A stretch of DNA of 64,000 bases, from positions 12,059-76,058 of the forward strand of contig CAIJZX010000012.1 in NCBI GenBank assembly GCA_903825245.1. The letters run 5' to 3'. Below are positions 18,089 to 41,198 of this stretch, piece after piece. Every line of letters begins with the position of its first letter. Positions within the stretch are counted from its first letter, which is position 1. Origin of the DNA: Candidatus Kerfeldbacteria bacterium. Lineage in GTDB: Bacteria > Patescibacteriota > Patescibacteriia > SBBC01 > CAIJZX01. The position numbers and the translations under genes are program-made. The notes under the pieces are model-generated. The model saw only the letters and a program-made list of their open reading frames with translations. It searched no databases and was not told the DNA's origin.

Positions 18089-18095
18089 TACCACA

Positions 18096-18430: not shown

Positions 18431-18477
18431 CGCAACGCTAGACACTCGTCTCACCATCTGACGTTTCATCCTTTTCT

Positions 18478-18750: not shown

Positions 18751-18761
18751 TCGACAACCAA

Positions 18762-18792
18762 CACTTCCGCCACCCGGAAGTGGTTTTGTATT
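18762..18792 (+). terminator. Rho-independent terminator after rpmA; may act bidirectionally
   Basis: 8-bp stem cacttccg/cggaagtg with loop ccacc, followed by GTTTTGTATT. Confidence 0.6.
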
Positions 18793-25447: not shown

Positions 25448-25926
25448 GGCGTAAGTGTTAGATTGATGTCGCGCAATTGAACCGACGTATCAACCGCTGA
25501 AACGGTTACTTTGAATGCCCGCGTCGCGACCGCGAGCGTCGACCAATCAAGGTCCACCTCCGCCGGCTGGCCGGCCGCAACGGTTTTCATCGTTGCGCTC
25601 AATCCGGCTCGCGAAGGAACGGTGACCGTCAAAAATCCGTCAGAAGCAACAGTTGAGATCGACAGTGTCCCGTGAGAAAATTTTCGCGGCACCACCACCA
25701 GAAACGACGTCGATGCGTTCGTCACCATGACATCCTTTCCCATAGTCGGTATTTTCTGCCATCGAAACATAGCTGACGATTGATGAAGATTGTGCCAACG
25801 AAATAGCACTGGACTCGGCCAGAGGAGATTTGCTCTCGCGACAACAACGGCCACAACCAACCATAGTGCCACCGTGAAACCAAACAGAATGGGTGTGCGG
25901 TACTTCATAGCGGCGTGATTTTCCAA
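25444..25926 (-). CDS. Hypothetical membrane-anchored protein
   Basis: N-terminal TM. 4-nt overlap with the downstream ORF. Confidence 0.4.
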   Translation of the reverse strand: MENHAAMKYRTPILFGFTVALWLVVAVVVARANLLWPSPVLFRWHNLHQSSAMFRWQKIPTMGKDVMVTNASTSFLVVVPRKFSHGTLSISTVASDGFLTVTVPSRAGLSATMKTVAAGQPAEVDLDWSTLAVATRAFKVTVSAVDTSVQLRDINLTLTP

Positions 25927-27542
25927 ACCGAATCTTTATCGAACGCTTGTTGTATCGTCACCGTCAGGCCGTAGCTATTCATCACACTCGCATCCGGCGT
26001 ACCGACCGGTTCATAGACATACACCGGGCGCTGTTGCACCAGCGTGCGTAAGGCTTGCCACTCTGCCACATTCGTCGGCAACTGAAAGAGCGCCAATCGA
26101 TCGCCTTGGATATATTTATCGGCGGCTCCGGCGATAACCACACTCCCCGGCTCAGTAACTCGAAGAATATTCTGCCGTGTTATCTGATGAAGTTGATCTG
26201 CAGAAAAACGTGCTTGTAAGCCGGATACCGGGTGTTGCCAAATCGTCCATCCTTGCGAAAACAACATCACCGCGGCCACAACGACCACCAACCATCGCCG
26301 GGTAAATAATCTCAAGGTAATGATAACGCCGGGCACCAGCATGACATACAACGACAACCAGTATCGTGCGTAAGACGCCAGCGCACCGACATCTCCGGAC
26401 GGCGTGGTCGGATACAGATTCCAGCACCCGTAGTAAACCAGCGGAAAAATCGCAATGAGGCTCATGACCGACAACTTGAACGACTTTGACCAGGTCACGT
26501 ATTTCCTTCGAAAATACCGACTAATCGCAATCAGCCCCATCAAGGACCAAGTAGGAAGTAGGAGAATGAAATACCACCAGGTCGACGACAGCCAGTGCCA
26601 GCTCCAACCGCCTGGCGGCGTGAAGAGTGTTTTTGCCGGCGCCGCCACGGAAGCAACCGCATTGACGCTATCGGTAAAAACGCCGCTTGGTGTGTACCCC
26701 GACGATAGGAAAGAACCGTAGATGGCATGATTGGCTAACAGCCACGGCATCTGAACGAACAATGTTACCACGCCAACCACGATTAACTCTCGCCAGAGCT
26801 TCCGCGCAAGCAGAACAATAATAATTGCTGGCGCCGTCCAAAGCACTTCGACTGGGCGAAAGAACAGTGCTAGCCCAAACGCCGCACCGCTGACGACGGC
26901 GAACCAAAACCTCGGGCGTTCGAGTAAACGTAAGAGTGCCCATCCAGCAATCATCAATCCGGCCACGAACGCGCCGTTGTGCATGTACGGCAAGGTGGCA
27001 AATTCGAACAACGCCGGATGCAAAGCGAGGAGAACAACACCGAGTAATGACCACCACCGTCCCCAGAAGCGCCGAAAGACGTCATACATCGCCAACAATG
27101 CGCCCAACATCAAGAGTGGTATCAGAAAACGTTCCGCGCCGAGACCGAAGAGTTTTGCTATCAAAGCGCCAGCTTGAATGAGCCCCAGAAAGCTCCCTGA
27201 GGCCAAATCTTGGCCTACGACAGCGATACTCCGCGGATGCACAAAAGAGACCATAGCGGCCGTCAACCCTTCACTCAAGCGATACGAACCGGTCTGAGCG
27301 AGATGCTGAATGAATAACCGATTCGCCGCTTCATCCGGCGAGCCGACAGTTTGCGTCTTCGTTACGATCCACCCCGTCAGCACGATCCACCCGATAATCA
27401 GCAGACCCGCTGTCAGGCGAAACGCCAACGACGGCCGCGTTAGATCGTGATACGGCGCGGCATACCACCGCTCCTTGCTATTCGGAGGATTCTGGGTCGT
27501 CGTCTCGGTCATAGTAGACAAGCAGTGACAAACCAAGAACAA
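25905..27542 (-). CDS. Polytopic membrane protein, GT-C-like glycosyltransferase candidate
   Basis: More than 10 TM. GSPDEAANRLFIQHLAQTGSY resembles the DE-loop of PMT/ArnT-type GT-C enzymes. Confidence 0.45.
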   Translation of the reverse strand: MFLVCHCLSTMTETTTQNPPNSKERWYAAPYHDLTRPSLAFRLTAGLLIIGWIVLTGWIVTKTQTVGSPDEAANRLFIQHLAQTGSYRLSEGLTAAMVSFVHPRSIAVVGQDLASGSFLGLIQAGALIAKLFGLGAERFLIPLLMLGALLAMYDVFRRFWGRWWSLLGVVLLALHPALFEFATLPYMHNGAFVAGLMIAGWALLRLLERPRFWFAVVSGAAFGLALFFRPVEVLWTAPAIIIVLLARKLWRELIVVGVVTLFVQMPWLLANHAIYGSFLSSGYTPSGVFTDSVNAVASVAAPAKTLFTPPGGWSWHWLSSTWWYFILLLPTWSLMGLIAISRYFRRKYVTWSKSFKLSVMSLIAIFPLVYYGCWNLYPTTPSGDVGALASYARYWLSLYVMLVPGVIITLRLFTRRWLVVVVAAVMLFSQGWTIWQHPVSGLQARFSADQLHQITRQNILRVTEPGSVVIAGAADKYIQGDRLALFQLPTNVAEWQALRTLVQQRPVYVYEPVGTPDASVMNSYGLTVTIQQAFDKDSVWKITPL

Positions 27543-27951
27543 TCAGTCCGGACAACGGCGCGATGACTCGAACTAACCAACCGACTGACGATGTTTTATA
27601 CCACACCACCGCCACTGTCCCGATTGCCAGTAGACCCATCCAAACAAAGTCTTTCCACGTTGGTTTTGAGAGTAACTTTTTTGATTCCGGCACAATCGCG
27701 GGCCAAACACTTGAAAGAACACCGGTGATGATGGCCGCCCACAAGAAGGAATCGAGGTTGTAGAAAAAAGTAACGAATCCCGGACGAAGGTTTTCAATGA
27801 GATACAAACCAAGATAACTGACGAGTGTTACTTGAAACACAAATGATAAGATATCGCGGGTTTCTTTAGCACTGAGCGGCCAGGGAATAGAAAACGTTAC
27901 GCGACGCATGGTTATTTCATCAAATGGAGTTTCTGAAAGACCTTTTTCCAC
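27478..27951 (-). CDS. Hypothetical 4-TM membrane protein
   Basis: Hydrophobic segments; operon context. Confidence 0.4.
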   Translation of the reverse strand: MEKGLSETPFDEITMRRVTFSIPWPLSAKETRDILSFVFQVTLVSYLGLYLIENLRPGFVTFFYNLDSFLWAAIITGVLSSVWPAIVPESKKLLSKPTWKDFVWMGLLAIGTVAVVWYKTSSVGWLVRVIAPLSGLIVLGLSLLVYYDRDDDPESSE

Positions 27952-29477
27952 GGGAACACACCGCGTACCAGGGTAACACGAATATCGCGAAGTCCGAGTG
28001 TTGCACCGGAAGCTTGCATGCCCGGCGAGTCAATACTGAACGTTAACGTTTTCCCGAGCAATGAAAGATTGTCCAAAGTATATGTTTGGTCGGCCTGTAA
28101 CGTACCACTCGTATTCGGAACGTAATCGGCTAAAATGTAATCGACGGCGCTAACATCAGGTGTCGCAGAGGAAACATCAATTCCACGGGCGCCATCAGGG
28201 ATGAGTTGTGTACCACCGAATGAGAGTAATCCGTCACTAGTCACTATAATGTCGCCTTTCGGGATATCAATCGTTGTTGTTCCGGTTAATTTACTCACCA
28301 CGTGGTTGACTTTTACATCCTGAACAGTGACTTTAGTACCAGCGATTGCGACGTCTTGTTTACCTTGATCATGATTGGCTGCCACTGTTACTGATGTACC
28401 GTTCGATTGCAAAACAACCGGTGTGTACAACGATTGGCCATATGCTAGACCTTCAGCCAGGTACACTCGACCGTTAAATGAAATATCATGCTGTGCACTG
28501 GAAAAATTCGCCAACAATACATCGTCGCTGGCGCTAATATCAATAAAGTAAATACCCGGCGTGACTTTTGGAATATTGATCACGACCGGCTGGGATTTGC
28601 CGTGGATCCCCTCTTTACCAGTTAACCCGTCATCACCGACTGTTATGGACTTGATCCACGTCCGACCATCGGCAGTTGCATCGGCCACTTTTGCCACACG
28701 AATGGTTACCATGTCAGCTCCCATTGCACGATTAAGGTCTATTTTATCGAACGAAAGTTTTAAATCTTCATTGGCCGCATAAACATACAATTGGTGACTG
28801 CCACGAAGTGTATGATTAAAAGTAACCGGCGAGGTGCTTGGCTTATAGTTACTCACTGTTGCAAAGGCCATCCGATCGACGCCGACTAATCCGACACTAC
28901 TCATTGCCGGCGGATTAGCCCGGAAAGCGTCAACCGAGTCATATTGGACGACTGTTCGCTCGGTGGTAATCGTTTTCGTGACCGCCCTTTTTCCTGTTCC
29001 GGTCGTTATCTTCTCTTCGGTGACATGCTTATCGCGCATCCATAACGTCAGATTACCAGTCGTGACATGTCTCCAGGAGAGGGTATCCAAACTCGCGGCT
29101 TTGATAACCTTTTTGATGTTTAATCCTTTTGCACCGGAAGCAGTTAAAGCGATGTAGGACTGGGTTCCCGGATCAAGTTGTACACAAATGCGCACCGCTT
29201 CGATGAGGCGCGGGATTGTGACGTTAAATACGAAATTATCGACTGAAATGCGCCACTTGAGCACTGAATCAGCTGTTTTGAGAAGTTGGTTAGGAGTTTG
29301 TGGATGAACGGCTTGGGTTTTGCTACCAGGCTTGTACATGTAGTTGAGCGTGCGGCTAAAGAAAATATGGTCGTTTATTAAAGAAACGAAAATCCAAATC
29401 GGAATCAAGACGACTACCACTTTTATAATATGTAGCCAGGGGAAAGTTTTTCTATGTCTCAAGATATGCCAATGCAT
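27912..29477 (-). CDS. Hypothetical membrane-anchored surface protein (521 aa)
   Basis: N-terminal TM, then a large T/S/V-rich beta-type extracytoplasmic domain. No family recognised. Confidence 0.45.
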   Translation of the reverse strand: MHWHILRHRKTFPWLHIIKVVVVLIPIWIFVSLINDHIFFSRTLNYMYKPGSKTQAVHPQTPNQLLKTADSVLKWRISVDNFVFNVTIPRLIEAVRICVQLDPGTQSYIALTASGAKGLNIKKVIKAASLDTLSWRHVTTGNLTLWMRDKHVTEEKITTGTGKRAVTKTITTERTVVQYDSVDAFRANPPAMSSVGLVGVDRMAFATVSNYKPSTSPVTFNHTLRGSHQLYVYAANEDLKLSFDKIDLNRAMGADMVTIRVAKVADATADGRTWIKSITVGDDGLTGKEGIHGKSQPVVINIPKVTPGIYFIDISASDDVLLANFSSAQHDISFNGRVYLAEGLAYGQSLYTPVVLQSNGTSVTVAANHDQGKQDVAIAGTKVTVQDVKVNHVVSKLTGTTTIDIPKGDIIVTSDGLLSFGGTQLIPDGARGIDVSSATPDVSAVDYILADYVPNTSGTLQADQTYTLDNLSLLGKTLTFSIDSPGMQASGATLGLRDIRVTLVRGVFPWKKVFQKLHLMK

Positions 29478-29502: not shown

Positions 29503-30369
29503 TTATTGCAGTAATTTTGATTCCGTTGCGAGTCCTTGCTGGATCGTGACGACATTCATTTTATGACTAATGAGGAGATTGACGATCGACTTTAGTTCAC
29601 CGGTCGTAATGGAAAGATGTTTTCCTGTCAAATCGAGTTCCGGCGCTGGGGTTACCCGATGGAAAACCAACACCAACCATCGTCCGTTGTTCTGTGCCCA
29701 CACACATAAATCCAGAATTTTTGTTACCGGTATATCGGAAGTGACGATGATTGCCGGCATTTCCATCGGGTTGCCACCTTTGAGCGGCAGACCATTCTCA
29801 AGTTTCCTCCCGGATTCATAACCCGCCCGCTGTACAGCAGCTTCCACCGGTTGGTTATACAAGCCGCCGGGATAAGCAAAGTCCACGACCGGAATACCGA
29901 GATTCTCTAGATCCTTTTTCGATCCTTGGAGTTCAGTATCGACGCGCTCCATCGACATCGATGTTAAATCTTGGTGCGATTGTGTATGTGAGGCGATCTC
30001 GTGTCCCTGGTGATACAGTGTTTGTACTTGGGAAGCATCCATGAAATTTGGATCGTGGCCATCCAGATAATTCGTGATGATGTACTGGGTGCTTTTGAGG
30101 TGTGCGGCATTCAATATCGGTATAGCATTTTGATAGACCTCCTCCGTCCCATCATCGAACGTCAACGATACCATATGGAACGGCTTTGGTTTTTTCGGCT
30201 TTGAAGCCAATGCTGGTTTGACTGTCATCTTTGTTGAAGTCGCAACTGTTTTTTCCAGCCCACTAGAAATGGAATATACGATAAAAACGCCACAAAAAAT
30301 AATTGTGGCTACAGAAAAAAATTTAACCTTCTTATGCGAGATCGAGAACAGCGGTGAGATGTACTTCAT
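29503..30369 (-). CDS. Polysaccharide deacetylase (CE4/NodB domain), membrane anchored
   Basis: HMVSLTFDDG motif 1 and HEIASHTQSH motif 2 of NodB homology domains. Confidence 0.8.
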   Translation of the reverse strand: MKYISPLFSISHKKVKFFSVATIIFCGVFIVYSISSGLEKTVATSTKMTVKPALASKPKKPKPFHMVSLTFDDGTEEVYQNAIPILNAAHLKSTQYIITNYLDGHDPNFMDASQVQTLYHQGHEIASHTQSHQDLTSMSMERVDTELQGSKKDLENLGIPVVDFAYPGGLYNQPVEAAVQRAGYESGRKLENGLPLKGGNPMEMPAIIVTSDIPVTKILDLCVWAQNNGRWLVLVFHRVTPAPELDLTGKHLSITTGELKSIVNLLISHKMNVVTIQQGLATESKLLQ

Positions 30370-30639: not shown

Positions 30640-31641
30640 ATGTCTACACTTCAAGGAAAACGCGTTCTCGTCACTGGTGCTGACGGTTTTATTGGTAGTC
30701 ATCTTGTTGAACAGTTACTCGCCCAAGGATGCCGTGTACGTGCTCTAGTGTACTATAACTCCTTCAATTCCTGGGGCTGGATCGACTCATTCGGTGTGGC
30801 GCAAAAGCAACTCATCGACGTTATGCCTGGTGATGTTCGGGATCCGAACTGCATGCGTGAAGCAGTGAAAGATATGGATATCGTTTTCCATCTGGCTGCA
30901 CTGATCGCCATTCCCTACAGCTACTCGGCACCCGACAGTTACGTCGATACGAACATCCGTGGAACATTGAATGTTTTACAAGCCTGCCGCCAACATGAAA
31001 CACGACGCGTGCTCGTAACTTCGACATCGGAAGTATATGGAACTGCGCAATACGTACCGATTGACGAAAAACATCCGTTCCAAGGACAGTCGCCATATTC
31101 GGCCACGAAAATCGGCGCCGACCGCATCGCTGAATCATTCTATCGCAGCTTTGAATTACCGGTAACCATTGTCCGTCCGTTCAATACGTACGGACCACGT
31201 CAATCAGCTCGGGCATTCATCCCCTCGCTCATCTCACAATTACTATCCGGTTCGTTGGAAATTAAAATGGGTACTCGCACGACGACGCGAGACCTCGTTT
31301 TCGTCAAAGATACAGCCCGCGCTTTTGTCGCCATCGCCCAGGCTGATGCAACAATCGGGCAGGAATTGAATATCGCCACGCAACAAGAACATTCAATTGG
31401 CGATATCGCCGATACCTTGGTGAGGATGATCGAACCGAAGGCAAAATTGATTGAGGAGAAAATTAGGCTTCGTCCGCAAAAAAGCGAGGTCGACCGATTG
31501 CTAGGCAGCAACGAGAAGATTCGTTCGCTCACGGATTGGCAACCGACACATTCGATCGAACAGGGGTTGGAGGAAACGATTGCCTGGTTCAAATCAGGGA
31601 ACAATCTTGATCGGTACAAACCGGATATCTATAACCTCTAA
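30640..31641 (+). CDS. NAD-dependent sugar-nucleotide epimerase/dehydratase (SDR extended family)
   Basis: VLVTGADGFIGSHL Rossmann motif and SPYSATKIGAD (YxxxK). Start at ATG 30640 (MSTLQGK). Confidence 0.8.
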   Translation: MSTLQGKRVLVTGADGFIGSHLVEQLLAQGCRVRALVYYNSFNSWGWIDSFGVAQKQLIDVMPGDVRDPNCMREAVKDMDIVFHLAALIAIPYSYSAPDSYVDTNIRGTLNVLQACRQHETRRVLVTSTSEVYGTAQYVPIDEKHPFQGQSPYSATKIGADRIAESFYRSFELPVTIVRPFNTYGPRQSARAFIPSLISQLLSGSLEIKMGTRTTTRDLVFVKDTARAFVAIAQADATIGQELNIATQQEHSIGDIADTLVRMIEPKAKLIEEKIRLRPQKSEVDRLLGSNEKIRSLTDWQPTHSIEQGLEETIAWFKSGNNLDRYKPDIYNL

Positions 31642-31645
31642 CACT

Positions 31646-32353
31646 ATGCAGGCTGTCATTCTTGCCGGCGGAAAAGGCACGCGACTGAAACCGTTCACCA
31701 CATTCCTACCGAAGCCGCTCGTTCCGGTCGGCGATGTCCCCATCCTCGAGGTGGTGTTGCGCCAATTGAAACACTACGGCTTCACTGACGCAGTCCTGGC
31801 GGTCAATCATTTGGCCGAGTTAATCATGACCTTTTTCGGCAATGGCGACAAACTCGGTATGCACATCACCTACTCTCGCGAAGAACAACCGCTCGGTACC
31901 GCGGGTCCGGTCGCGCTCGTCGACAAACTGGATGATCATTTTTTGGTCATGAACGGCGATCTATTGACGACCGTTAATTTTAAGCAGCTCTATGACTATC
32001 ATATCGCCCAGAAGAACGATGTGACGATCTGCACAGCCAAGAGAGAAGTGAAAATTGATTTGGGTGTTCTAGAAATCAAGGATAATGCTTTCGTAAATTA
32101 CAATGAAAAACCGACCTTGAGTTACTGGGTCAGTTCCGGCATCTACATTCTCAATCGCGATGTAGTCAAGACTATCCCGCAAGGAAAACCATACGATATG
32201 CCGACCTTGATGATGGAATTGCATCGCCAAGGAAAAAAGATCGGTTGCTATACCGAAGATTTCTACTGGCTTGATATCGGCCGCGTCGACGATTACGAAA
32301 CGGCGGTGAGAATTTTCAACGAAAAAAAGGATCAATTCCTCCCCAATGGATAA
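31646..32353 (+). CDS. Sugar-1-phosphate nucleotidyltransferase, likely mannose-1-P guanylyltransferase feeding gmd
   Basis: MQAVILAGGKGTRLKPFT...PKPLVPV N-terminal NTP-transferase signature. 236 aa. Confidence 0.7.
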   Translation: MQAVILAGGKGTRLKPFTTFLPKPLVPVGDVPILEVVLRQLKHYGFTDAVLAVNHLAELIMTFFGNGDKLGMHITYSREEQPLGTAGPVALVDKLDDHFLVMNGDLLTTVNFKQLYDYHIAQKNDVTICTAKREVKIDLGVLEIKDNAFVNYNEKPTLSYWVSSGIYILNRDVVKTIPQGKPYDMPTLMMELHRQGKKIGCYTEDFYWLDIGRVDDYETAVRIFNEKKDQFLPNG

Positions 32354-33251
32354 GGTCTGCATTCTCGGCATCGACGGCTTCACCGGCAGTCATTTCCTCG
32401 ACTACATACAAACACACCGACTGGCTGAACAGTATGATTTCTTTGGTTTTAGTCGGACGCCCACGCACGTGCACATCCCGATCTCGGCGTTATCCGCCAC
32501 TGATCGAGGCGCGCTATCGGCCACGCTGAAAAAATTACAACCGCAGTATATCGTCAATCTCATCGGTTCGCCGCAACCCGCCACACTGGAAGCGGCAGTC
32601 GCACTCAACGCGACGATTAGCCAGTGGATTTGCGAAATTACGTTAGAGGAACACCTACCACTGAAAAAGTTACTCGCCATCGGTTCGGCAGCGGAATACG
32701 GAGTTCCGGAGTCTCTCCCAATCACCGAGTTACACCCACTCCAACCCGTCTCGATGTACGGCTTAGCTAAAGCGTGGCAAACACAGGTTCTGTCTTATTT
32801 CCATCGTAAACATTCTTTACCGATCAACGTCGCTAGGACGTTCAACATCATCGGTTCGGGCATGCCGAACTATCTCTCCATCGGCTCGTTCGCGGAACAA
32901 ATCCGCACTCTTGGTGATGTCGGGAAACTGCTCGTCGGAAATATCGAATCTAAACGTGATTTTCTTAACATCAACGATGTCATCGATGCGTATTGGAAGA
33001 TACTGATCGACGCCCCAAGCGGCGAAATATACAATGTATGCAATGGATCTTCTCTCTCCATGCGCGAGATACTGCAAACAATGATCAAAGCTTCACATAA
33101 AAACATTACCATCCACCTCGATCAGCAACGAGTCAAACGACACGATGTCCCGGATATTTACGGCGATAACCAAAAATTGCAACAAGCCACAAACTGGAAA
33201 CCGAGCGGTACCCTGACGGCGGAATTAACCGAGATTGTCCAGGCTTCGTGA
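32346..33251 (+). CDS. GDP-4-keto-6-deoxy-D-mannose reductase-like SDR (Rmd/Tld family paralogue)
   Basis: ILGIDGFTGSHF, MYGLAKAWQ (YxxxK), NIIGSG, VGNIESKRDF and IYNVCNG are co-linear with Rmd motifs. Confidence 0.55.
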   Translation: MDKVCILGIDGFTGSHFLDYIQTHRLAEQYDFFGFSRTPTHVHIPISALSATDRGALSATLKKLQPQYIVNLIGSPQPATLEAAVALNATISQWICEITLEEHLPLKKLLAIGSAAEYGVPESLPITELHPLQPVSMYGLAKAWQTQVLSYFHRKHSLPINVARTFNIIGSGMPNYLSIGSFAEQIRTLGDVGKLLVGNIESKRDFLNINDVIDAYWKILIDAPSGEIYNVCNGSSLSMREILQTMIKASHKNITIHLDQQRVKRHDVPDIYGDNQKLQQATNWKPSGTLTAELTEIVQAS

Positions 33252-33340
33252 ACTTCTGACAGCAGTCTTCGGTAGACTGGCAGTTTTGACGTATTCTTGA
33301 AATTTCGATATACTGAACCAGTTATTCGGTAGTAACTTTT

Positions 33341-34372
33341 ATGAAAAAAGCACTGATTACCGGCATCACCGGCCAGGATGGCTCCTACCTCGCGGATTTC
33401 CTACTAACAAAAGATTATGAAATTCACGGTATCGTCCGCCGCGCAAGCTCATTTAATCGTGAGCGTATTGAACATATCCTGAATACCCCTGAACTCCAAT
33501 CTCGGGTGCATCTGCATTACGGAGATTTGAGCGATAGTAGTTCAATTAATCAAATTGTCAAAACTGTCAAACCCGATGAAATCTATCATCTCGGAGCGCA
33601 AAGCCATGTGCGGATTAGTTTTGACATTCCTGAATACACCGGTGATGTGACTGCACTCGGAACACTACGCTTACTTGACGCCATTCGAGATTCGGGCATA
33701 AACACGAAATTCTATCAAGCATCCTCGAGTGAAATGTTCGGCCAGGTAGCCGAAATCCCACAAACCGAACGTACACCATTTCACCCCCGCAGTCCGTACG
33801 GTGTTGCCAAGGTTTATGGGTATTGGATCACCGTTAATTACCGGGAAAGCTACGATATGTTCGCTACAAATGGCATCCTCTTTAATCACGAATCGCCCCG
33901 ACGCGGTGAAAATTTCGTCACACGGAAGATCACCCACACATTAGCGAACATCAAATTTGGATATGAAAAAAAGCTCTCGCTCGGGAATTTAAACGCCCAA
34001 CGCGATTGGGGGTACGCGCCGGACTACGTCGAAGCGATGTGGCTGATGCTCCAGGCGGCAAAACCAACTGACTATGTCGTCGCCACCGGTGAAACGCACT
34101 CGGTCAAAGAATTCGTCGATACCGCGGCCGCGGCCGCCGGTTTCGAATTGTCGTGGGAAGGCACGGGAGTCGACGAAAAGGGCATCGATCGAAAAACCGG
34201 CCAAACAATCGTGGACATCGATCCCAGGTTTTTCCGTCCGGCCGAAGTCGATCTGCTCATCGGAAATCCGGCGAAAGCCCAGCAAGAACTCGGCTGGAAA
34301 CCAAAAGTGAGCTTTTCGAAACTCGTTGAATTGATGGTCATCGCCGATCTCGAGCAAGCAAGCAAACGGTAA
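33341..34372 (+). CDS. gmd: GDP-mannose 4,6-dehydratase
   Basis: [22 protein letters not shown]...HLHYGDLSD...HLGAQSHV is a canonical Gmd sequence. Confidence 0.9.
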
Positions 34373-34377
34373 CCCAC

Positions 34378-35289
34378 ATGCGAGTATTCATTACGGGAAT
34401 TGACGGTTTCGTCGGCCGATATCTAGCCCATGAACTCTCGCGATACGGTAGTGAGGTTTTTGGCACGACGATGGGAACAGCTTCCGACCATGTGATGCAT
34501 ATGGAAGTGACCGATATGGCCAGTGTTCGAACGGCCATTCAAGACGTACGACCGGACCAGGTGTTTCATCTAGCCGGCTTTACCTCGGTCAAACAAAGTT
34601 GGAGCCACCCCGAAGATGCGTTGCGTGTCAATCGCAATGGTACAAAAAACGTCTATACCGCCCTCACGGAACTGCAACATATGCCGAAAGTTTTACTGAC
34701 AAGCACCGCCGAGGTGTACGGCATCCCGGCCTCGATTCCGATCACCGAAACGCACCCGACCGCGCCAAACAATCCGTATGCAGTGTCAAAATTAGCCCAA
34801 GAATCTATATCAAACGATTACCCTGGCATCACCACGGTCATTACACGGAGCTTTCCGCACATCGGTCCGGGACAGAGTCCGTCGTTTGTCACCTCGGATT
34901 TTGCCCAGCAAATCGTTCGTGTAGAACGCGGTCAAGCGACGTCGATTCATGTCGGCAATCTCGATGCCCGACGCGATTTTACCGATGTGCGGGACGTCGT
35001 TCGGGCATATCGTTTGCTGCTCGACCAAGCTCATGCACATGACATTGTGAATGTTTGTTCAGGGAATACATACAGCATCAAGGAGCTACTCGATACGTTG
35101 GTACGAAATTCAACTTCCAAGGCTATTGTCATCGAACATGACCCAGAACGACTGAGGCCGTCTGATATACCGGTATTATCCGGTTCCTCACAACATTTGC
35201 ACGAACTAACCGGTTGGCACCCATCAATTGATATTCTTGCCACCACACTACCAGAAATTCTGGATTATTGGAGAAAGATTACCTGGTAA
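34378..35289 (+). CDS. rmd: GDP-4-dehydro-6-deoxy-D-mannose reductase (Rmd, GDP-D-rhamnose synthase)
   Basis: RVFITGIDGFVGRYL, PYAVSKLA, HIGPGQ, VGNLDARRDFTDVRDVVRAYRLLL and VNVCSG match the Rmd signature blocks. The gene directly follows gmd. Confidence 0.75.
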   Translation: MRVFITGIDGFVGRYLAHELSRYGSEVFGTTMGTASDHVMHMEVTDMASVRTAIQDVRPDQVFHLAGFTSVKQSWSHPEDALRVNRNGTKNVYTALTELQHMPKVLLTSTAEVYGIPASIPITETHPTAPNNPYAVSKLAQESISNDYPGITTVITRSFPHIGPGQSPSFVTSDFAQQIVRVERGQATSIHVGNLDARRDFTDVRDVVRAYRLLLDQAHAHDIVNVCSGNTYSIKELLDTLVRNSTSKAIVIEHDPERLRPSDIPVLSGSSQHLHELTGWHPSIDILATTLPEILDYWRKITW

Positions 35290-35487: not shown

Positions 35488-36342
35488 ATGAAAAATCCAT
35501 TGAAAAAAGCCATGTCGGGTTCCTTTTTCTTTCGACATCCGTCAAGTTTAATGTTTATTCGAACACTATACTATTGGCCTATAGACACTTTCGAACAACT
35601 TTTCGGACTCCGCGATCCTTTAACACCTCCCCGTGGTAAAGTTTTTATCGGCGGAGGAAATTACCGGAAGTTGGGAGAGGTTTTTTTACAATATTTCATT
35701 GAATTAGGCCATTTACAAAAAAATGCAGCCGTACTCGACGTAGGTTGTGGAATTGGAAGAATGGCAGCACCATTGACTAAGTATCTTTCCACCGAGGGGC
35801 GATATGAAGGATTTGACATCGTCCAAGAAGGAACAGATTGGTCAAAAAAGAACATTACTGTTCGCTTTCCTAATTTCCAATTCCAGTTTGCTGATATTTG
35901 GAATAAAATTTATAATCCGCGGGGGAAATTCCAAGCATCAAGCTATAAGTTTCCCTACCCTGACAACACGTTTGATTTTTGCTTTTTGACATCCGTGTTT
36001 ACACACATGCTGTCATCTGATGTACACCAATACCTTAAAGAAATTTCTAGAACATTAAAGCCAGGTGGGAAGATATTTGCCACGTATTTCTTACTAAATG
36101 AAGAATCGAGTACCTTGGCATCACAGAGCAAGAGTACTTTAAGATTTCCTTATGGACGAGAGGGGTGTTACTTGGAAAATGAAGTTGCACCTGAAACAGC
36201 AGTTGCTTATACAGAGAAATCCGTAAGGGAGCAATTTATTTCGCTGGGACTTACTATCACCGAACCGATTCACTTTGGTAATTGGTGCGGACGACCAGCG
36301 TTTCTTTCATATCAAGATATAGTTGTAGCTGAAAAAAAATAG
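35488..36342 (+). CDS. Class I SAM-dependent methyltransferase
   Basis: LDVGCGIGRMAAPL motif I. The gene is visibly AT-rich relative to its neighbours. Confidence 0.75.
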   Translation: MKNPLKKAMSGSFFFRHPSSLMFIRTLYYWPIDTFEQLFGLRDPLTPPRGKVFIGGGNYRKLGEVFLQYFIELGHLQKNAAVLDVGCGIGRMAAPLTKYLSTEGRYEGFDIVQEGTDWSKKNITVRFPNFQFQFADIWNKIYNPRGKFQASSYKFPYPDNTFDFCFLTSVFTHMLSSDVHQYLKEISRTLKPGGKIFATYFLLNEESSTLASQSKSTLRFPYGREGCYLENEVAPETAVAYTEKSVREQFISLGLTITEPIHFGNWCGRPAFLSYQDIVVAEKK

Positions 36343-36513
36343 AAATTCATTCATACCCTTTAGCTCGCTAAATCACTGGGCGTTTTTAAACCTCGTCATT
36401 TTTGCAAAAGGGTAAGTTTAAACTCGAATCGTTGTTCCGGCGAAGAAAACGTGGTTTTCTGTGCAATTGCAGGAAACTACATTATTAGGGAATGACCCGA
36501 AAGTGATATCTGT

Positions 36514-36542
36514 TTGACTTCTTATAAGAAAATGAGTATAAT
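36514..36542 (+). promoter_or_regulatory. Consensus promoter TTGACT-N17-TATAAT
   Basis: Perfect -35 and -10 hexamers with a 17-nt spacer, ~50 nt before the 36596 gene at the head of a plus-strand glycan operon. Confidence 0.5.
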
Positions 36543-36595
36543 GTTTGTGTTAGAACATAGCAAAGATTTTTTTGATTGAGGAAATTCTGCCCTGA

Positions 36596-37423
36596 TTGAA
36601 GCAACCAATACCTCCAACGGAAATGCCACAACGAACGGTAACTTTTGAAACGAAATGCTGGGACAAAGACTGGCGTTTTTTGTTAACTACGAACTATCTC
36701 GAAAAAAATATTGCCCATCAACAATTCCCATTCACTCGGCGCGTCATATTCATCAATAATGTCCGCGACACACAGGCGGTAACAACCGCGGCGGACCGAA
36801 TAAAAAGTCAAGGCGTTATTGACGACTACTACGTAGTCGAACAATATGCGGACGAAGCGTTGCGTTTTTTTCAAATTCCAAAGGAATCATTCGGTCGGGG
36901 GTATTATTATTCGATCGCTGAATTAGTTAGCCTCTATCTTTGCTCGACCGAGTATATCCTGCATTTTGCCGGCGATACCTACATGCCACAGCCATCGGAC
37001 TGGGTTACACCAGCTCTCGACATTTTAGAACGACGACCTGACATCGTGATAGCAAATCCGACCTGGAATAATAACTATCTCGGAGCGGAGCAGGAATCGA
37101 CCAGCCAGGATAATGATTTTTTTTACGGTTATGGTTTTTCCGATCAATGCTACCTCGTGCGAACGAGAGATTTTCGACAACCGATATATATGGAGAAAAA
37201 TAACGCTTCCGAACGATATCCCGAATACGGCGGTGAATTATTTGAGAAACGTGTCGATGCTTGGATGCGGAATCATCAACATCTTCGGGCAACATATCGA
37301 CACAACTCATACATCCATCAGAACTTTCCGCACCTTTGGTGGCAAAAGAAATTGGCCTTGCGAAAATGGGGCGTTTTGAATGAAGCACAAAGCGCAGTAA
37401 CCGCAACTCACCGTATCGTCTGA
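36596..37423 (+). CDS. Hypothetical protein (275 aa), possibly a nucleotide-sugar transferase-like enzyme
   Basis: Soluble with no TM. First gene after the strong promoter. No recognisable motif. Confidence 0.45.
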   Translation: MKQPIPPTEMPQRTVTFETKCWDKDWRFLLTTNYLEKNIAHQQFPFTRRVIFINNVRDTQAVTTAADRIKSQGVIDDYYVVEQYADEALRFFQIPKESFGRGYYYSIAELVSLYLCSTEYILHFAGDTYMPQPSDWVTPALDILERRPDIVIANPTWNNNYLGAEQESTSQDNDFFYGYGFSDQCYLVRTRDFRQPIYMEKNNASERYPEYGGELFEKRVDAWMRNHQHLRATYRHNSYIHQNFPHLWWQKKLALRKWGVLNEAQSAVTATHRIV

Positions 37424-37434
37424 TACTATCGACT

Positions 37435-38877
37435 ATGCCTTCCCGATTGAATAAAATGCAGATTATCACCAGGAATTTCGCCAGTTTGTCGTTTTCGCAA
37501 TTCATATCCCTCGGACTTGGCGTCTTCATTTCCATTTTTACTATTCGGTATCTGGGGGTTACGAATTATGGCCGCTACTCGTTGGTTATCACAATCGTAG
37601 GACTTTTTGGCTTCGTCGTCGATCTTGGATTATCACAACTCGTGATTCGTGAGGTGAGCAAAAAACGGGAAGATGCCGACAAATACTTTGGAAATTTTTT
37701 GATCGTTCAAACAGCGATCGGCATTGGTATGTATCTACTACTCGTGATCTTCGTCAATGTCCTCCACTATCCGCAGGTTATTCGGTTGGGAGCGTATATC
37801 GTGGGCGGCAGTATGCTCCTCAACGCTTTGGCCCGACCGTTCTATGCGATTCTCACGGCCTTGGAAGAAATGCAAATTGTGGCTTTGGCAAATACCATCG
37901 GCATTCTGCTCAACTTTGTTGGACTATTAGCTGTAATTCATTTTAAAGCGAACTTGAATGCTTTCTTTACCCTCATCCTCGCGTCAAGTCTCGTTTCCAC
38001 ACTTTTTTTCATTCTTTTTTCACGTCGTTTCTTTCGAATTACGGTCCAATTTGATCGAATTTTGATTAAACACCTCCTTCTTCTTACCATACCGTTCGCA
38101 CTACTGATGACATTTAATATCATTTACGGCAAGGTTGACGTATTTCTCATTTCTCGTATTTTGCATAGTGACTCTGCGGTTGGCCTCTATTCATCGGCGT
38201 ATAAATTTATCGACGCCTTGATCATTTTAATGTCGACGATATCCGGCGTCCTGTTCCCGGTCATCGTCAAGAATTTCGCCGATGCGGGCGCGACGAACTT
38301 CATAGCTTCACGGGCAATAAAGTATACCTCGGCGGTTGGGCTTCCAATTGCTTTTGGCGTTTCGCTACTTGGAACGAAGATCATAACAACTGTCCTTGGC
38401 CAAAATTTTCATGACTCGGGTAACATCTTAAAAATCCTCATTTGGATAATCGCGCTTGTCAGCGCATATTCGATTCTCGGATGCGTATTAACTGCGGCCA
38501 ACAAAGTTTCCATGATGGTTCGCTTTAATGCTCTTGGCATCGTCGTCAATGTTGCGGCCAATCTTTTTTTTATCCCACGACTCGGAATAAAAGGTGCGGC
38601 CATAAGCAATATCATTTCCGAAGTCATGATGTTAGCGCTCTACGCGTACTATTCTCGGAACTATTTACAGTACCGCCAATTACGATATGATTTCTTAAAG
38701 ATTGCCGGAGGTTGTGGACTGATGTTTGTGGCTTGGAAATTTCTGCCGTCAATGAATCTGCTTCTCATGATCATTATCCTTGCCCTCGTTTATGGTGCCA
38801 CACTCTTATTGACAAAATTTATCCATAAGAACGAGTATCATTTTATTAAGCAAATTTGGGCCGCTCAACCTAAATAA
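37435..38877 (+). CDS. wzx: Wzx-type oligosaccharide flippase (MOP/polysaccharide biosynthesis protein family)
   Basis: 480 aa, about 12-14 TM, RfbX-like organisation. Start probably at MQIITRN (37456). Confidence 0.75.
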   Translation: MPSRLNKMQIITRNFASLSFSQFISLGLGVFISIFTIRYLGVTNYGRYSLVITIVGLFGFVVDLGLSQLVIREVSKKREDADKYFGNFLIVQTAIGIGMYLLLVIFVNVLHYPQVIRLGAYIVGGSMLLNALARPFYAILTALEEMQIVALANTIGILLNFVGLLAVIHFKANLNAFFTLILASSLVSTLFFILFSRRFFRITVQFDRILIKHLLLLTIPFALLMTFNIIYGKVDVFLISRILHSDSAVGLYSSAYKFIDALIILMSTISGVLFPVIVKNFADAGATNFIASRAIKYTSAVGLPIAFGVSLLGTKIITTVLGQNFHDSGNILKILIWIIALVSAYSILGCVLTAANKVSMMVRFNALGIVVNVAANLFFIPRLGIKGAAISNIISEVMMLALYAYYSRNYLQYRQLRYDFLKIAGGCGLMFVAWKFLPSMNLLLMIIILALVYGATLLLTKFIHKNEYHFIKQIWAAQPK

Positions 38878-38897
38878 GAAAATTTAACCTAACGTGT

Positions 38898-39692
38898 ATG
38901 ACCGAACGACCATGCCATTGTGGTGAATCAAAATACCAGCGGCTCTTTACTGCCAAAGGATTCTGCATTGGACGCTGTCTTGCCTGTCAGCAGGTGCGGA
39001 CAGTAACCATCGGCACATCTCCCCTCTCAACTGATGAACACTACGATGAACGTTACGCCCAGGGATATGAAGCAAACATCGCCACCTACGACCCACATTA
39101 CATTCGCGTCGTATCGTTGCTTGAGCGTTACCGTCAAGCCCCTGGAGAGCTACTGGATGTTGGTTGCGGAACTGGCGGCTTAATACGAGCGGCACAAAAA
39201 TCTGGTTGGCACGCCACCGGAGTTGATATATCAGAAGCGAACTGCGCCCAGGCGCGAAAGTACGGTTTGACAGCAGATCCTGTTACCATTTTTCAGGTAT
39301 CTCATCAGAACGGATCGCTGGATGTTATCACTGCGAACCATGTATTAGAACACGTTGACCAACCGGTCGAGTTTGTTCGAAAGGCATTCCAATTATTGAA
39401 AAACGGTGGTTTGTTAGTCATTGGAGTTCCTAATTTTGGAAGTTTCATGTCACGTATCTATCGCGACCGTTGGGTTTCTCTTCATCCTGAAGATCATATT
39501 TGGCAATTTTCTCCTCGGACGTTACAATTCCTGTTAACACAAGCCGGATTTGCCCCACAAGCGATTTTTTTCGACAGTCATAGCCGAAAAACTGTTGGTG
39601 TACCGATTCGCTATGCCTATCAACTTCTTGATGTCGTCGCTACCGTATTCCGCGCTGGTGAGGCCATGTTATTGATTGCTAAAAAACCATGA
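38898..39692 (+). CDS. Class I SAM-dependent methyltransferase with an N-terminal Cys4 zinc-ribbon
   Basis: CHCGES...CIGRCLAC, then LDVGCGTGGL motif I. Confidence 0.75.
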   Translation: MTERPCHCGESKYQRLFTAKGFCIGRCLACQQVRTVTIGTSPLSTDEHYDERYAQGYEANIATYDPHYIRVVSLLERYRQAPGELLDVGCGTGGLIRAAQKSGWHATGVDISEANCAQARKYGLTADPVTIFQVSHQNGSLDVITANHVLEHVDQPVEFVRKAFQLLKNGGLLVIGVPNFGSFMSRIYRDRWVSLHPEDHIWQFSPRTLQFLLTQAGFAPQAIFFDSHSRKTVGVPIRYAYQLLDVVATVFRAGEAMLLIAKKP

Positions 39693-40432
39693 ATAGATTA
39701 TCTGTCATCATCGTTGCCAAGAACGAAGAGCAGTGGCTTAATGATTGCTTACAAAGCATTTCCTGGGCCGACGAGATCATCGTCGTCGACGATGGTTCTA
39801 CTGACCATACAAAAAATATAGCATTGCGGTATACAAACAATATTTTCGAGTATGCCAACAATTATTCTGATTTCGGTTCACAGAAGCAATTTGCCCTCTC
39901 CAAGGCTACCGGCGAGTGGGTGTTGAGCCTCGATGCTGATGAACGAGTCACGTCCGAACTTGCACAAGAAATCAAAAAGCTTATCCAGATGCCTAACGAT
40001 GTTTCAGTTTATACAATCCCCTATCACAACTATTTCCTGGGTCACCCATTGAAAATGCGTTGCGAACAGTATTCACAACCAAGGCTGTTTCGCCGGACCG
40101 GTTCCGTTTTTAAAAACAAAATTCACGAAGTTATCGAAGTACCCGGAGTAACAGGCGCCGCATTTGGCTTTATCGATCACTACTCCTACAAAAGCATTGC
40201 CAGCATTGTTACAAAGTTTAATAAATATACCGACATTGAAGCACATAACCTCTATCAGCAAGGGTACCGAACGAATGCCTTGAAAATCTTTCTTGCGCCT
40301 TTCGAAACCTTTTTTCGCCGCCAAATTATCCTTGGTGGTTGGCGCGATAGTACCTACGGACTGATACTCAATATTCTTTTTGCTTATTATTATTTACTGA
40401 TACAAATGAAGGTCTGGGAACTCGCGAGGTAA
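39689..40432 (+). CDS. Family 2 glycosyltransferase
   Basis: LSVIIVAKNEEQWL...IIVVDDGSTD GT2 N-terminal signature and DAD (DXD). Confidence 0.85.
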   Translation: MNRLSVIIVAKNEEQWLNDCLQSISWADEIIVVDDGSTDHTKNIALRYTNNIFEYANNYSDFGSQKQFALSKATGEWVLSLDADERVTSELAQEIKKLIQMPNDVSVYTIPYHNYFLGHPLKMRCEQYSQPRLFRRTGSVFKNKIHEVIEVPGVTGAAFGFIDHYSYKSIASIVTKFNKYTDIEAHNLYQQGYRTNALKIFLAPFETFFRRQIILGGWRDSTYGLILNILFAYYYLLIQMKVWELAR

Positions 40433-40478
40433 ACTCTCCACAACAACTACCTAAATATCATTATCTTATTTCGCCTAT

Positions 40479-41177
40479 ATGCATTTCTTTACAAGAGCTA
40501 AGGCCGCATTAATTGCTGAATATTGGGCCTGGTATAAGAAGCGTCATCATTATTATGGACAATTTAATCCACCCATGGATTTTTTAATCGCCAAGTACTT
40601 TCCCAAGAATTATATTGGTACTTGTATCGAAGTCGGGGCGGCGGATGGTCTCAGCTGTAGCAATACGCTGCATTTTGAACAAAAAGGTTGGAATTGTTTA
40701 TGTATTGAAGCCAATCCCGTCCATGAAGCATCTCTGAAAAAGAATCGAAAACATGTTCGGATGTGCGCCGTTGGCGAACATCATCAGCAAACCGCCAACT
40801 TTAACGTTGCTGACATGACCACTGGAGTGTACGAGGCGATTAGTTCGCTAGAGGTCGATCAACGACTCGTTCAGTCGCACAAAGACATTCTTCAAGGCAT
40901 ACACCAAATCACCGTTGAGGTGGATACACTAGACGAATGTGCGGAGGTGTTTACAGCGTCACTGCCCACACCGACCAAAAAAATAGATTTTGTCACAATT
41001 GATACCGAAGGTACCGAGCTTTCGGTATTAAAAGGATTTAATCTGCGCGCTTGGGAAGTTTCATTACTCGTGGTTGAGAATAACTTCAAAGAAACCGCTA
41101 GTAAAGACTATCTCGAAAGTTTTGGTTACAAATTACAAGAGCGATATCAGGTGAATGATTTTTATGTTCGAAAATAA
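40479..41177 (+). CDS. FkbM-family methyltransferase
   Basis: CIEVGAADGLSCSNT...CIEANP matches the FkbM-domain motif block. AT-rich gene. Confidence 0.65.
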   Translation: MHFFTRAKAALIAEYWAWYKKRHHYYGQFNPPMDFLIAKYFPKNYIGTCIEVGAADGLSCSNTLHFEQKGWNCLCIEANPVHEASLKKNRKHVRMCAVGEHHQQTANFNVADMTTGVYEAISSLEVDQRLVQSHKDILQGIHQITVEVDTLDECAEVFTASLPTPTKKIDFVTIDTEGTELSVLKGFNLRAWEVSLLVVENNFKETASKDYLESFGYKLQERYQVNDFYVRK

Positions 41178-41198
41178 TTCCGTCGGCAAGAACGGCAC

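Follow-up and report, generated by a model that had tools for sequence, protein, structure and literature searches.

The locus analyzed here raises the question of why a gene for GDP-mannose 4,6-dehydratase (gmd) lies between two Rmd-related reductases of the extended SDR type, designated SDR-A (upstream) and SDR-B (downstream), and whether both act on the product of Gmd. According to the original prediction they would, giving D-rhamnose and possibly 6-deoxy-D-talose, with GDP-mannose supplied by a likely ManC-like nucleotidyltransferase encoded upstream. The sequence analysis was carried out on the whole 64-kb stretch of DNA (hereafter, the window).

Genomic Organization of the Locus

The four ORFs originally described, namely, the nucleotidyltransferase, SDR-A, gmd, and SDR-B, are all present on the + strand at the positions given for them, and the family and structure matches of their products score well above chance level. 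However, the left boundary originally placed at position 31646 cuts off a functionally linked gene of LegB type (30640–31641). The features of the region are as follows:

29503–30369, − strand: polysaccharide deacetylase, NodB type (PF01522, 95 bits)
30640–31641, + strand: LegB-type NAD-dependent 4,6-dehydratase, 333 aa (TIGR04180); module 1, step 2
31646–32353, + strand: short sugar-1-phosphate nucleotidyltransferase, 235 aa (PF00483, 132 bits); module 1, step 1
32346–33251, + strand: SDR-A, divergent Rmd-derived extended SDR, 301 aa (PF01370/PF16363); module 1, step 3
33286–33314, + strand: promoter-like site TTGACG-17-TATACT (10/12 consensus matches; a consensus match only)
33341–34372, + strand: gmd, GDP-mannose 4,6-dehydratase, 343 aa (TIGR01472); module 2, step 1
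34378–35289, + strand: SDR-B, predicted Rmd-type GDP-4-keto-6-deoxy-D-mannose reductase, 303 aa; module 2, step 2

The stop of the dehydratase gene and the start of the nucleotidyltransferase gene are separated by 4 nt, and the nucleotidyltransferase and SDR-A genes overlap by 8 nt; the three form a tightly coupled set, with translational coupling of SDR-A to the nucleotidyltransferase. SDR-A is followed by an 89-nt gap holding the promoter-like site, after which comes gmd, and SDR-B begins 5 nt after gmd. The mechanically called ORF of the dehydratase opens at GTG 30571; homologues favor the ATG at 30640. The deacetylase gene is transcribed divergently from module 1 and forms part of the genomic context only. 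We lean toward reading the locus as two adjacent, separate GDP-activated 6-deoxy sugar pathways that probably feed one glycan assembly island, the substrates being putative throughout.

The gmd and SDR-B Pair

The product of gmd scored 548 bits against TIGR01472 (cutoff 415), covering profile positions 1–341 of 342, and 500 bits against PF16363. The catalytic Ser/Thr-x-Glu and Y-xxx-K motifs are present in its translation (ASSSEMFG and SPYGVAK), and its description as a canonical gmd is borne out. SDR-B found its best matches among the solved Rmd enzymes (217 bits to 2pk3 and 166 bits to 6x3b) and carries the motifs TSTAEVYG and NPYAVSK with the catalytic Thr, Tyr, and Lys. Genes of SDR-B type adjoin gmd in 16 other loci, and the gmd-linked reductases of other genomes are of this type. 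By its best matches and its coupling to gmd, SDR-B is a good Rmd candidate, as had been proposed. The two genes are predicted from their sequences to form an ordinary GDP-D-rhamnose pair, in which Gmd would provide GDP-4-keto-6-deoxy-D-mannose and SDR-B would reduce it to GDP-D-rhamnose, the C4 configuration that separates rhamnose from talose not being readable from sequence. The pair resembles the Gmd–Rmd systems of the Pseudomonas aeruginosa common polysaccharide antigen and the A. thermoaerophilus S-layer glycan (structures 1rpn, 6x3b, and 2pk3), with no notable difference, and on its own is ordinary.

SDR-A and Its Conserved Gene Neighborhood

The best solved relatives of SDR-A are the Rmd of A. 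thermoaerophilus (2pk3, 123 bits) and then that of P. aeruginosa (6x3b, 83 bits). It shares 29% identity with SDR-B and, as originally noted, is the one of the pair that has diverged further. Its AlphaFold model (pLDDT 95) has as top fold matches the Rmd structures 2pk3 (E 1.8e-30, TM 0.87) and 6x3b, followed by GDP-mannose dehydratases. A grouping with GDP-fucose synthase or with a UDP-sugar epimerase such as GalE, which would have contradicted the original prediction, was not found; by both sequence and predicted fold, SDR-A groups with Rmd/Gmd. The protein contains a Gly-rich NAD(P) motif (GIDGFTG), and its catalytic residues Ser114, Tyr138, and Lys142 are invariant in 30 homologues. In its motif GSAAEYG, Ala replaces the Glu/Asp of Rmd and Gmd (GSSEEYG/TSE), so that SDR-A lacks the acidic residue common to these enzymes two positions past the catalytic Ser/Thr. 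This Ala is a hallmark of the entire clade of reductases that are linked to a dehydratase and a nucleotidyltransferase.

This triad of dehydratase, nucleotidyltransferase, and SDR-A, arranged as in the window, recurs across more than 20 unrelated genomes and metagenomes and is hardly ever accompanied by gmd; it is present in Bacillota, Planctomycetota, Verrucomicrobiota, Cyanobacteria, Chloroflexota, Proteobacteria, Omnitrophota, and others. Triads with no gmd nearby were counted in over 20 other loci and include those of L004, L005, L007 (Acetivibrio clariflavus), L008, L011, L021, L022, L026, L027, L040, L054, L062, L121, L124, L128, L132, L160, and L166, among others, and the 8-nt overlap is often repeated in the triads of other loci. 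A census of neighbors within 3 kb compared 25 genes bearing the GSAAEYG signature with 84 other Rmd-like genes. A LegB-like dehydratase or a nucleotidyltransferase of the window type was found beside 22 of the 25 signature genes and beside one of the 84 others (Fisher p about 8e-19); among loci fetched by SDR-A homology only, the count from the locus tables was 15 of 18. No conserved partnership of SDR-A-type genes with gmd was seen within 3 kb, gmd being present near 1/25 signature genes as against 18/84 other Rmd-like genes. Hence, SDR-A is most likely not the partner of gmd but belongs to a three-gene set with its own transferase and dehydratase. Since this set is conserved elsewhere without gmd, the proposal of a shared, Gmd-derived substrate for the two reductases is not supported.

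The LegB-Type Dehydratase and the Nucleotidyltransferase

In the profile search, the dehydratase scored 479 bits against TIGR04180, barely over the cutoff of 475. It is 68–69% identical to P0168 (68% over 330 aa) and P0225, the LegB proteins of complete canonical LegB-LegC-LegH-LegI-LegG-PtmE-LegF clusters, and shows only 24% identity to the Gmd of the window. The LegB enzymes of Campylobacter jejuni and Tannerella forsythia, mutually 62% identical, are specific for GDP-GlcNAc and do not convert UDP-, CDP-, dTDP-, or IDP-GlcNAc (PMC5378307). The enzyme encoded at 30640–31641 is predicted to be a GDP-GlcNAc 4,6-dehydratase. A tblastn search with LegC, LegH, LegG, LegI, and LegF (E ≤ 1e-3) found none of the five in the 64-kb window.

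The gene at 31646–32353 is the single sugar-1-phosphate nucleotidyltransferase gene of the window, and the presence of a short enzyme of this kind upstream of SDR-A is in agreement with the original description. Its assignment as ManC-like is not supported. The top NCBIfam match is the ManB-type (mannose-1-phosphate guanylyltransferase) model NF052502, with which it scores 150 bits where the cutoff is 440. Because the PtmE-type transferase of one legionaminic acid cluster reaches an equal score with this model (148.5 bits), the resemblance does not discriminate. Compared with two PtmE-type proteins, the nucleotidyltransferase showed 38% identity (159 bits) to the transferase domain of the one in the Leg cluster L090 and 32% to that of L091; identity to the short transferases adjoining LegB and LegC in L096, L129, and L142 was 40–43%. 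Identity to the gmd/rmd-linked transferases of L033 and L049 was 32–35%, and the margin is small (159 bits for the PtmE type vs. about 140 bits for the gmd-linked enzymes). In the transferase tree, the triad and Leg-cluster enzymes fall together, apart from the gmd-linked ones, with 31/100 bootstraps for the split. Close homologues of the window enzyme adjoin LegB-type dehydratases, not gmd. The N-terminal CBS region of the L090 and L091 proteins is missing from it. A PtmE-like guanylyltransferase acting on GlcN-1-phosphate or GlcNAc-1-phosphate is the predicted function.

It is also conceivable that the three enzymes of the triad form a complete pathway of their own for another hexose, in which, for example, glucose-1-phosphate or mannose-1-phosphate would be converted via an NDP-hexose and a 4-keto-6-deoxyhexose to D-quinovose, D-fucose, or D-rhamnose, the sugar specificity of the dehydratase having diverged from that of LegB. 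The borderline TIGR04180 score and a nucleotidyltransferase sequence that does not by itself assign a sugar are compatible with this. In a BLOSUM-distance neighbor-joining tree, the Leg-context dehydratases form one compact clade with the triad enzymes outside, and the latter are more diverse (63.7% mean identity vs. 78.9% within the Leg-context group); given this clade, some shift in specificity between the two contexts could have occurred. However, the split was recovered in 0/100 bootstrapped trees, and the alignment holds no conserved residue differences, with two weak separating positions against 103 invariant in both groups. The window dehydratase is also nearer to the Leg-context enzymes (67.8% mean identity) than to the other triad enzymes (63%), and in L096, L129, and L142, the same starter pair of dehydratase and nucleotidyltransferase is followed by a LegC-type aminotransferase. 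A different hexose substrate is, on this evidence, unlikely.

Possible Involvement of SDR-A With the Gmd Product

The reading of the original prediction, with SDR-B forming GDP-D-rhamnose and SDR-A acting as a Tld-like enzyme to form GDP-6-deoxy-D-talose from the same GDP-4-keto-6-deoxy-D-mannose, would account for the Rmd enzymes as the best solved relatives of SDR-A, for its position 89 nt upstream of gmd, for the joint occurrence of the triad with gmd and rmd in L103/L105 as well, and for the mannose-1-phosphate guanylyltransferase model as the top match of the nucleotidyltransferase. The likeness to the Gmd and Tld/GTS of Aggregatibacter actinomycetemcomitans serotype a, which provide GDP-6-deoxy-D-talose, lies in the second Rmd-like reductase near gmd; the conserved partners of SDR-A differ, being the LegB-type dehydratase and its own transferase. 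This reading leaves no role for the dehydratase at 30640–31641, and the census of neighbors, the SDR-B type of the gmd-linked reductases elsewhere, and the NF052502 scores also argue against it; we regard it as decidedly improbable. A relaxed SDR-A that would reduce the products of both LegB and Gmd, for an island making at least three 6-deoxy sugars, is very improbable. Its descent from the Rmd lineage and, here as in L103, its physical adjacency to the two dehydratases are offset by the LegB-type enzyme being its only conserved dehydratase partner elsewhere and by a dedicated Rmd already following gmd.

Against two separate modules, it may be held that the closest characterized relatives of SDR-A use a GDP-mannose-derived ketone. 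Moreover, as in the window, the triad is combined with gmd and rmd in L103/L105, which could reflect a functional link rather than co-use of the sugars in one glycan.

Proposed Pathway and Comparison With Known Systems

In the two-module arrangement that we prefer, the PtmE-like transferase of module 1 (30640–33251) would convert a sugar-1-phosphate and GTP to GDP-GlcN or GDP-GlcNAc, and the dehydratase, by its close orthology to biochemically characterized LegB, would act on GDP-GlcNAc. SDR-A, as the putative 4-ketoreductase for the dehydratase product, would then reduce C4 with NAD(P)H. An equatorial new hydroxyl, the Rmd-like outcome, would give GDP-D-QuiNAc and an axial one GDP-D-FucNAc, the stereochemistry being part of the prediction. 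Module 2 (33341–35289) would comprise the Gmd and Rmd steps described above.

By sequence, the dehydratase and the nucleotidyltransferase are similar to the first enzymes of the GDP-legionaminic acid pathway of C. jejuni and T. forsythia (PtmE, the GlcN-1-phosphate guanylyltransferase, and LegB). The window differs from this pathway in the absence of LegC, LegH, LegG, LegI, and LegF and of the CBS region, and an Rmd-derived reductase takes the place of the aminotransferase; the 4-keto intermediate is therefore predicted to be reduced, not aminated. The same logic, 4,6-dehydration of an NDP-GlcNAc followed by C4 reduction to a 6-deoxy-HexNAc donor, is found in UDP-D-QuiNAc/UDP-D-FucNAc-type pathways such as those of P. 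aeruginosa (WbpM with WbpV/WbpK) and S. aureus (CapD with CapN). Bacillus cereus Pdeg and Preq likewise are a UDP-GlcNAc 4,6-dehydratase and a 4-reductase (PMC4514872). Module 1 differs from these systems in its predicted GDP carrier, soluble LegB-type dehydratase, reductase of the Rmd/Gmd lineage, and own nucleotidyltransferase.

To our knowledge, D-QuiNAc and D-FucNAc donors are known only in UDP-linked form, and the only role known for GDP-GlcNAc is to open the route to legionaminic acid. The searched literature contained no GDP-QuiNAc or GDP-FucNAc donor, which cuts both ways for module 1. The chances appear evenly balanced that the transferase, LegB-type dehydratase, and GSAAEYG reductase constitute a widespread pathway to a new GDP-activated 6-deoxy-N-acetylhexosamine (GDP-D-QuiNAc or GDP-D-FucNAc). 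If so, the PtmE/LegB pair would serve generally as a GDP-GlcNAc "starter" for three or more downstream branches: one leading by amination to legionaminic acid, one combining amination with unusual N-acylation, and one consisting of reduction alone. This last branch would enlarge the known set of bacterial nucleotide sugars by a new member. It would also explain many annotations as "LegB" or "GDP-4-dehydro-6-deoxy-D-mannose reductase" outside legionaminic acid or rhamnose clusters, which at present would mislead pathway prediction, and would make available for glyco-engineering a compact cassette of three genes that is insulated from the pool of UDP-GlcNAc.

The Downstream Glycan Assembly Island

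Downstream of SDR-B, Pfam matches identified a block of glycan assembly genes (35488–44198, + strand):

35488–36342, + strand: methyltransferase (Pfam)
36596–37423, + strand: ORF of the island without an assigned family
37435–38877, + strand: Wzx-type flippase (Pfam)
38898–39692, + strand: methyltransferase (Pfam)
39689–40432, 41199–42086, 42041–43258, and 43143–44198, + strand: GT2 and GT4 glycosyltransferases (Pfam)
40479–41177, + strand: methyltransferase, FkbM type (TIGR01444)

Three of the four methyltransferases originally counted in the island are thus located there; the fourth (1805–2434) lies 30 kb away, beside murB. The predicted glycan of the window would shift from one with D-rhamnose and 6-deoxy-D-talose to one with D-rhamnose and a 6-deoxy-HexNAc. 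The earlier suggestion of a methylated deoxysugar glycan is consistent with the methyltransferases, glycosyltransferases, and flippase of the island, which together would assemble a glycan bearing the sugars of both modules, probably O-methylated.

Organization of the Deoxysugar Genes

The four ORFs named in the original prediction, i.e., a short nucleotidyltransferase, gmd and two Rmd/Tld-type reductases, were all found on the plus strand at the coordinates given there, along with a LegB-type dehydratase gene that lies directly upstream and had been overlooked.

30640-31641, plus strand: LegB-type 4,6-dehydratase, the ATG start at 30640 being backed by homologues
31646-32353, plus strand: nucleotidyltransferase of 235 aa (NTP_transferase)
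32346-33251, plus strand: SDR-A, the upstream reductase, nearest to Rmd
33286-33314: promoter-like site (sequence match) in the gap between SDR-A and gmd
33341-34372, plus strand: gmd
34378-35289, plus strand: SDR-B, the downstream Rmd-type reductase

The dehydratase stop and the transferase start are 4 nt apart, the transferase and SDR-A genes overlap by 8 nt, and gmd is separated from SDR-B by 5 nt. The gap between SDR-A and gmd, in which the promoter-like site is located, measures 89 nt. This spacing suggests an arrangement in two units, namely, dehydratase-transferase-SDR-A (the triad, or module 1) and gmd-SDR-B (module 2).

The family assignments of Gmd and SDR-B, which agree with the original prediction, are well supported. 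The gmd product scored 548 bits against TIGR01472, the curated equivalog model for Gmd (cutoff 415), and both solved Rmd structures, 2pk3 (217 bits) and 6x3b (166 bits), found their best match in SDR-B. The pair corresponds to the standard GDP-D-rhamnose pathway, in which Gmd would act on GDP-mannose to yield GDP-4-keto-6-deoxy-mannose and SDR-B would convert the latter to GDP-D-rhamnose, the C4 outcome being predicted. No source of GDP-mannose was found within the 64-kb window.

Sequence and Predicted Fold of SDR-A

The upstream reductase had also been placed in the Rmd family, and SDR-A was indeed nearest to Rmd both by sequence and by predicted fold. Its scores against 2pk3 (123 bits) and 6x3b (83 bits) were much weaker than those of SDR-B, to which it is 29% identical. 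The Gly-rich NAD(P) motif is present and the catalytic residues Ser114/Tyr138/Lys142 are invariant. Proteins of the SDR-A type have in common the motif GSAAEYG, with an Ala two positions past the catalytic Ser, whereas Rmd, Gmd and all gmd-linked reductases carry Glu or Asp at this position. The solved folds nearest to the AlphaFold model of SDR-A (pLDDT 95.1) were Rmd (2pk3, 6x3b), the putative epimerase 4lw8 and many GDP-mannose dehydratases, with UDP- and dTDP-sugar enzymes ranking below them; this ranking of the modeled fold would fit a GDP-sugar substrate. A GDP-fucose-synthase-like epimerase/reductase was rejected, as SDR-A is most closely related to Rmd and Gmd and lacks a Cys at the position that follows the catalytic Ser region. 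The simplest role for SDR-A is 4-ketoreduction of the dehydratase product, with no sign of epimerase chemistry.

Conservation of the Triad in Other Genomes

A protein search with SDR-A retrieved ∼70 homologues of 40–65% identity from many phyla, and a plasmid search returned only relatives of <30% identity. The homologue contigs L004, L005/L006, L007 (Acetivibrio clariflavus) and L008 carry this triad with its gene order unchanged, comprising a dehydratase of 330–335 aa, a transferase of 235 aa and a reductase of ∼300 aa; the 8-nt overlap was kept in several of these, and none had gmd within 6 kb of the triad. In A. clariflavus (L007, 4279-9806), the triad directly adjoins a Pel-type exopolysaccharide locus, next to its pelG- and pelF-like genes.

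Gene context was compared across 80 loci from a representative-genome scan and 80 from a metagenome scan baited with the dehydratase, the five window proteins being run by tblastn against all of them. Reductases nearer to SDR-A were found to adjoin homologues of the window dehydratase (44–72%) and transferase (41–73%), whereas those nearer to SDR-B adjoin gmd (16 loci). After removal of duplicates, the GSAAEYG signature was present in 25 of 109 Rmd-like genes. A LegB-like dehydratase or window-type transferase occurred within 3 kb of 22/25 signature genes as against 1/84 others (Fisher p ∼8e-19), in a census biased by the fetching of half of the loci with the dehydratase as bait; for gmd, the corresponding figures were 1/25 and 18/84. 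When only loci retrieved through SDR-A homology were considered, 15 of 18 had a triad partner by our count from the locus tables. The original prediction had both reductases acting on one ketone to give the epimers D-rhamnose and 6-deoxy-D-talose, and this pairing of the signature genes with the LegB-like dehydratase or transferase rather than gmd speaks against it. Two independent modules are the best-supported reading, and SDR-A very likely partners the LegB-type enzyme. The argument rests on the census of gene context and on the comparison of residues, the trees being indicative only; exact monophyly of the SDR-A clade was recovered in 8 of 100 bootstraps.

The two modules also occur together in another lineage (L103/L105, 5983-12603), where the triad is followed by a GT2 enzyme, a methyltransferase and GtrA and then by gmd-rmd. 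Hence, their co-location recurs but is the exception. The gene mix of this cluster mirrors that of the window island.

Identity of the Dehydratase and the Transferase

The dehydratase scored 479 bits against the LegB model TIGR04180 (cutoff 475) and, at 24% identity to the window Gmd, is not Gmd-like. Its family is tightly conserved, with thousands of matches, the best 120 showing 67–87% identity. Two homologues with 68–69% identity to the window enzyme, P0168 (Spirosomataceae) and P0225 (Spirochaetota), lie in canonical legionaminic acid (Leg) clusters consisting of LegB, a LegC aminotransferase (479 bits against TIGR04181, cutoff 420), a PglD/NeuD-type acetyltransferase, a NeuB-type synthase, a NeuC-type hydrolysing 2-epimerase, a CBS-plus-transferase protein of the PtmE type and a cytidylyltransferase. 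Similarly, the 80 metagenomic loci with a dehydratase 64–70% identical to that of the window were mostly Leg-type clusters, about ten being triads.

Residue comparison of 52 Leg-context with 24 triad-context dehydratases showed 103 positions that are ≥95% invariant in each set and only two discriminating positions, both weak, at one of which the window enzyme has the "Leg" residue. Its mean identity was 67.8% to the Leg-context enzymes as against 63% to the other triad enzymes. A first NJ tree placed all Leg-context dehydratases in one clade; this split is given no weight in either direction because it appeared in 0/100 bootstraps with another distance. The LegB enzymes of C. jejuni and T. forsythia, which are 62% identical to each other, used only GDP-GlcNAc (PMC5378307). 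Judged by orthology, the window dehydratase most likely keeps LegB activity. A 6-deoxy-heptose pathway (HddC/DmhA/DmhB) was rejected, as the dehydratase gave only 91 bits against 7us5 and is not Gmd/DmhA-like, and the score for HddC was 107 bits (cutoff 300).

Within the 64-kb window, the 235-aa transferase is the sole sugar-1-phosphate nucleotidyltransferase and, apart from the LegB-type dehydratase, Leg genes are absent. The earlier designation as ManC-like proved non-discriminating because the NCBIfam ranking of the transferase (ManB-type, archaeal GlmU, MurU and HddC models, all far under their cutoffs) is nearly identical to that of a PtmE-type protein from a Leg cluster. The transferase showed 38% identity (159 bits) to the transferase domain of the PtmE-type protein in L090 and 40–43% to short transferases directly beside LegB and a LegC-type aminotransferase (L096, L129, L142), as against 32–35% (∼140 bits) to gmd/rmd-linked transferases (L033, L049). 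An NJ tree grouped the transferases of triads and Leg clusters together, apart from those of gmd-linked and other cassettes, with a modest 31/100 bootstraps. PtmE is GTP-specific with GlcN-1-P (PMC5378307).

Proposed Pathway and Comparison With Known Systems

In module 1, the transferase may combine GlcN-1-P or GlcNAc-1-P with GTP to form GDP-GlcN(Ac). N-acetylation may be carried out by GlmU, as described for C. jejuni. The LegB-type enzyme would in all probability convert GDP-GlcNAc to GDP-4-keto-6-deoxy-GlcNAc, and NAD(P)H-dependent reduction at C4 by SDR-A may yield GDP-D-QuiNAc or GDP-D-FucNAc, both C4 outcomes being considered. Glycan assembly, and probably O-methylation, would be the task of the downstream island. 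The full statement of two modules, with a GDP-6-deoxy-HexNAc as the product of module 1, is considered reasonably likely.

Module 1 follows the same logic as the UDP-D-QuiNAc/UDP-D-FucNAc type of pathway, i.e., 4,6-dehydration and then C4 reduction, represented in B. cereus by the UDP-GlcNAc 4,6-dehydratase Pdeg and the 4-reductase Preq (PMC4514872). However, it differs in having a LegB-type dehydratase, an Rmd-derived reductase, its own transferase and a predicted GDP carrier. With the GDP-linked legionaminic acid pathway it has the first two steps in common, but the later genes are all absent. GDP-QuiNAc and GDP-FucNAc went unmentioned in the literature searched, nothing relevant was retrieved on GDP-quinovose, GDP-D-fucose or a GDP-glucose dehydratase, and an excerpt of a 2022 review of sugar dehydratases names GDP-GlcNAc solely in relation to legionaminic acid. 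The novelty lies in the triad and not in gmd/rmd.

Other cassettes were observed among the comparison loci. L096 (5296-12702; also L129 and L142) has, after the short transferase and LegB, genes for a LegC-type aminotransferase, a GNAT, a classical SDR, an AMP-binding ligase and a PglD-like acyltransferase, a gene content pointing to a GDP-4-amino-4,6-dideoxy-HexNAc that bears an unusual N-acyl group as a possible product. L101 (6001-9677) contains the dehydratase, the transferase, another SDR and an aminotransferase. These two gene sets suggest that the transferase-LegB pair is a general starter, reused ahead of several downstream branches. A third recurring cassette has two tandem Rmd-like reductases, the second with an SSSDVYG-type motif in most loci, and a distant dehydratase (∼29% to that of the window) and transferase (∼28%) nearby (L039, L041, L048, L061, L064, L067, L071, L074, L077, L079, L082, L083, L085).

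Glycan Island and Flanking Genes

The methylated deoxysugar glycan of the original prediction is consistent with the island downstream of module 2, which holds three methyltransferases, at least five GT2/GT4 enzymes and a Wzx flippase. Module 1 and a NodB-type deacetylase gene are transcribed divergently. The following genes flanking the island look like a lipid-carrier sugar modification system:

25905-27542, minus strand: PMT_2/ArnT-like membrane protein
49141-49818, minus strand: PpgS/AglJ-like polyprenyl-phosphate glycosyl synthase
50224-51285, minus strand: UXS/ArnA-like SDR, intact
51342-52046, minus strand: PpgS/AglJ-like polyprenyl-phosphate glycosyl synthase
52117-52650, minus strand: GtrA

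A 147-aa ORF (49797-50240, minus strand) immediately downstream of the intact SDR corresponds to no more than the C-terminal half of an extended SDR, without the Rossmann domain, and is 29% identical to residues 186–333 of the LegB-type dehydratase; it appears to be a truncated remnant. Three island ORFs had no Pfam/NCBIfam match: 27912-29477 (minus strand, 521 aa), 36596-37423 (plus strand, 275 aa) and 46158-47687 (minus strand, 509 aa), the last of which has glycosyltransferases around it, a location at which one could expect a polymerase. The region 1805-20946 carries type IV pilus/T2SS ATPase and platform genes, CTP synthase and a cell-wall/division cluster of murB, murC, murG, ftsW, murD and a mraY-like gene, which indicates that the host makes peptidoglycan.
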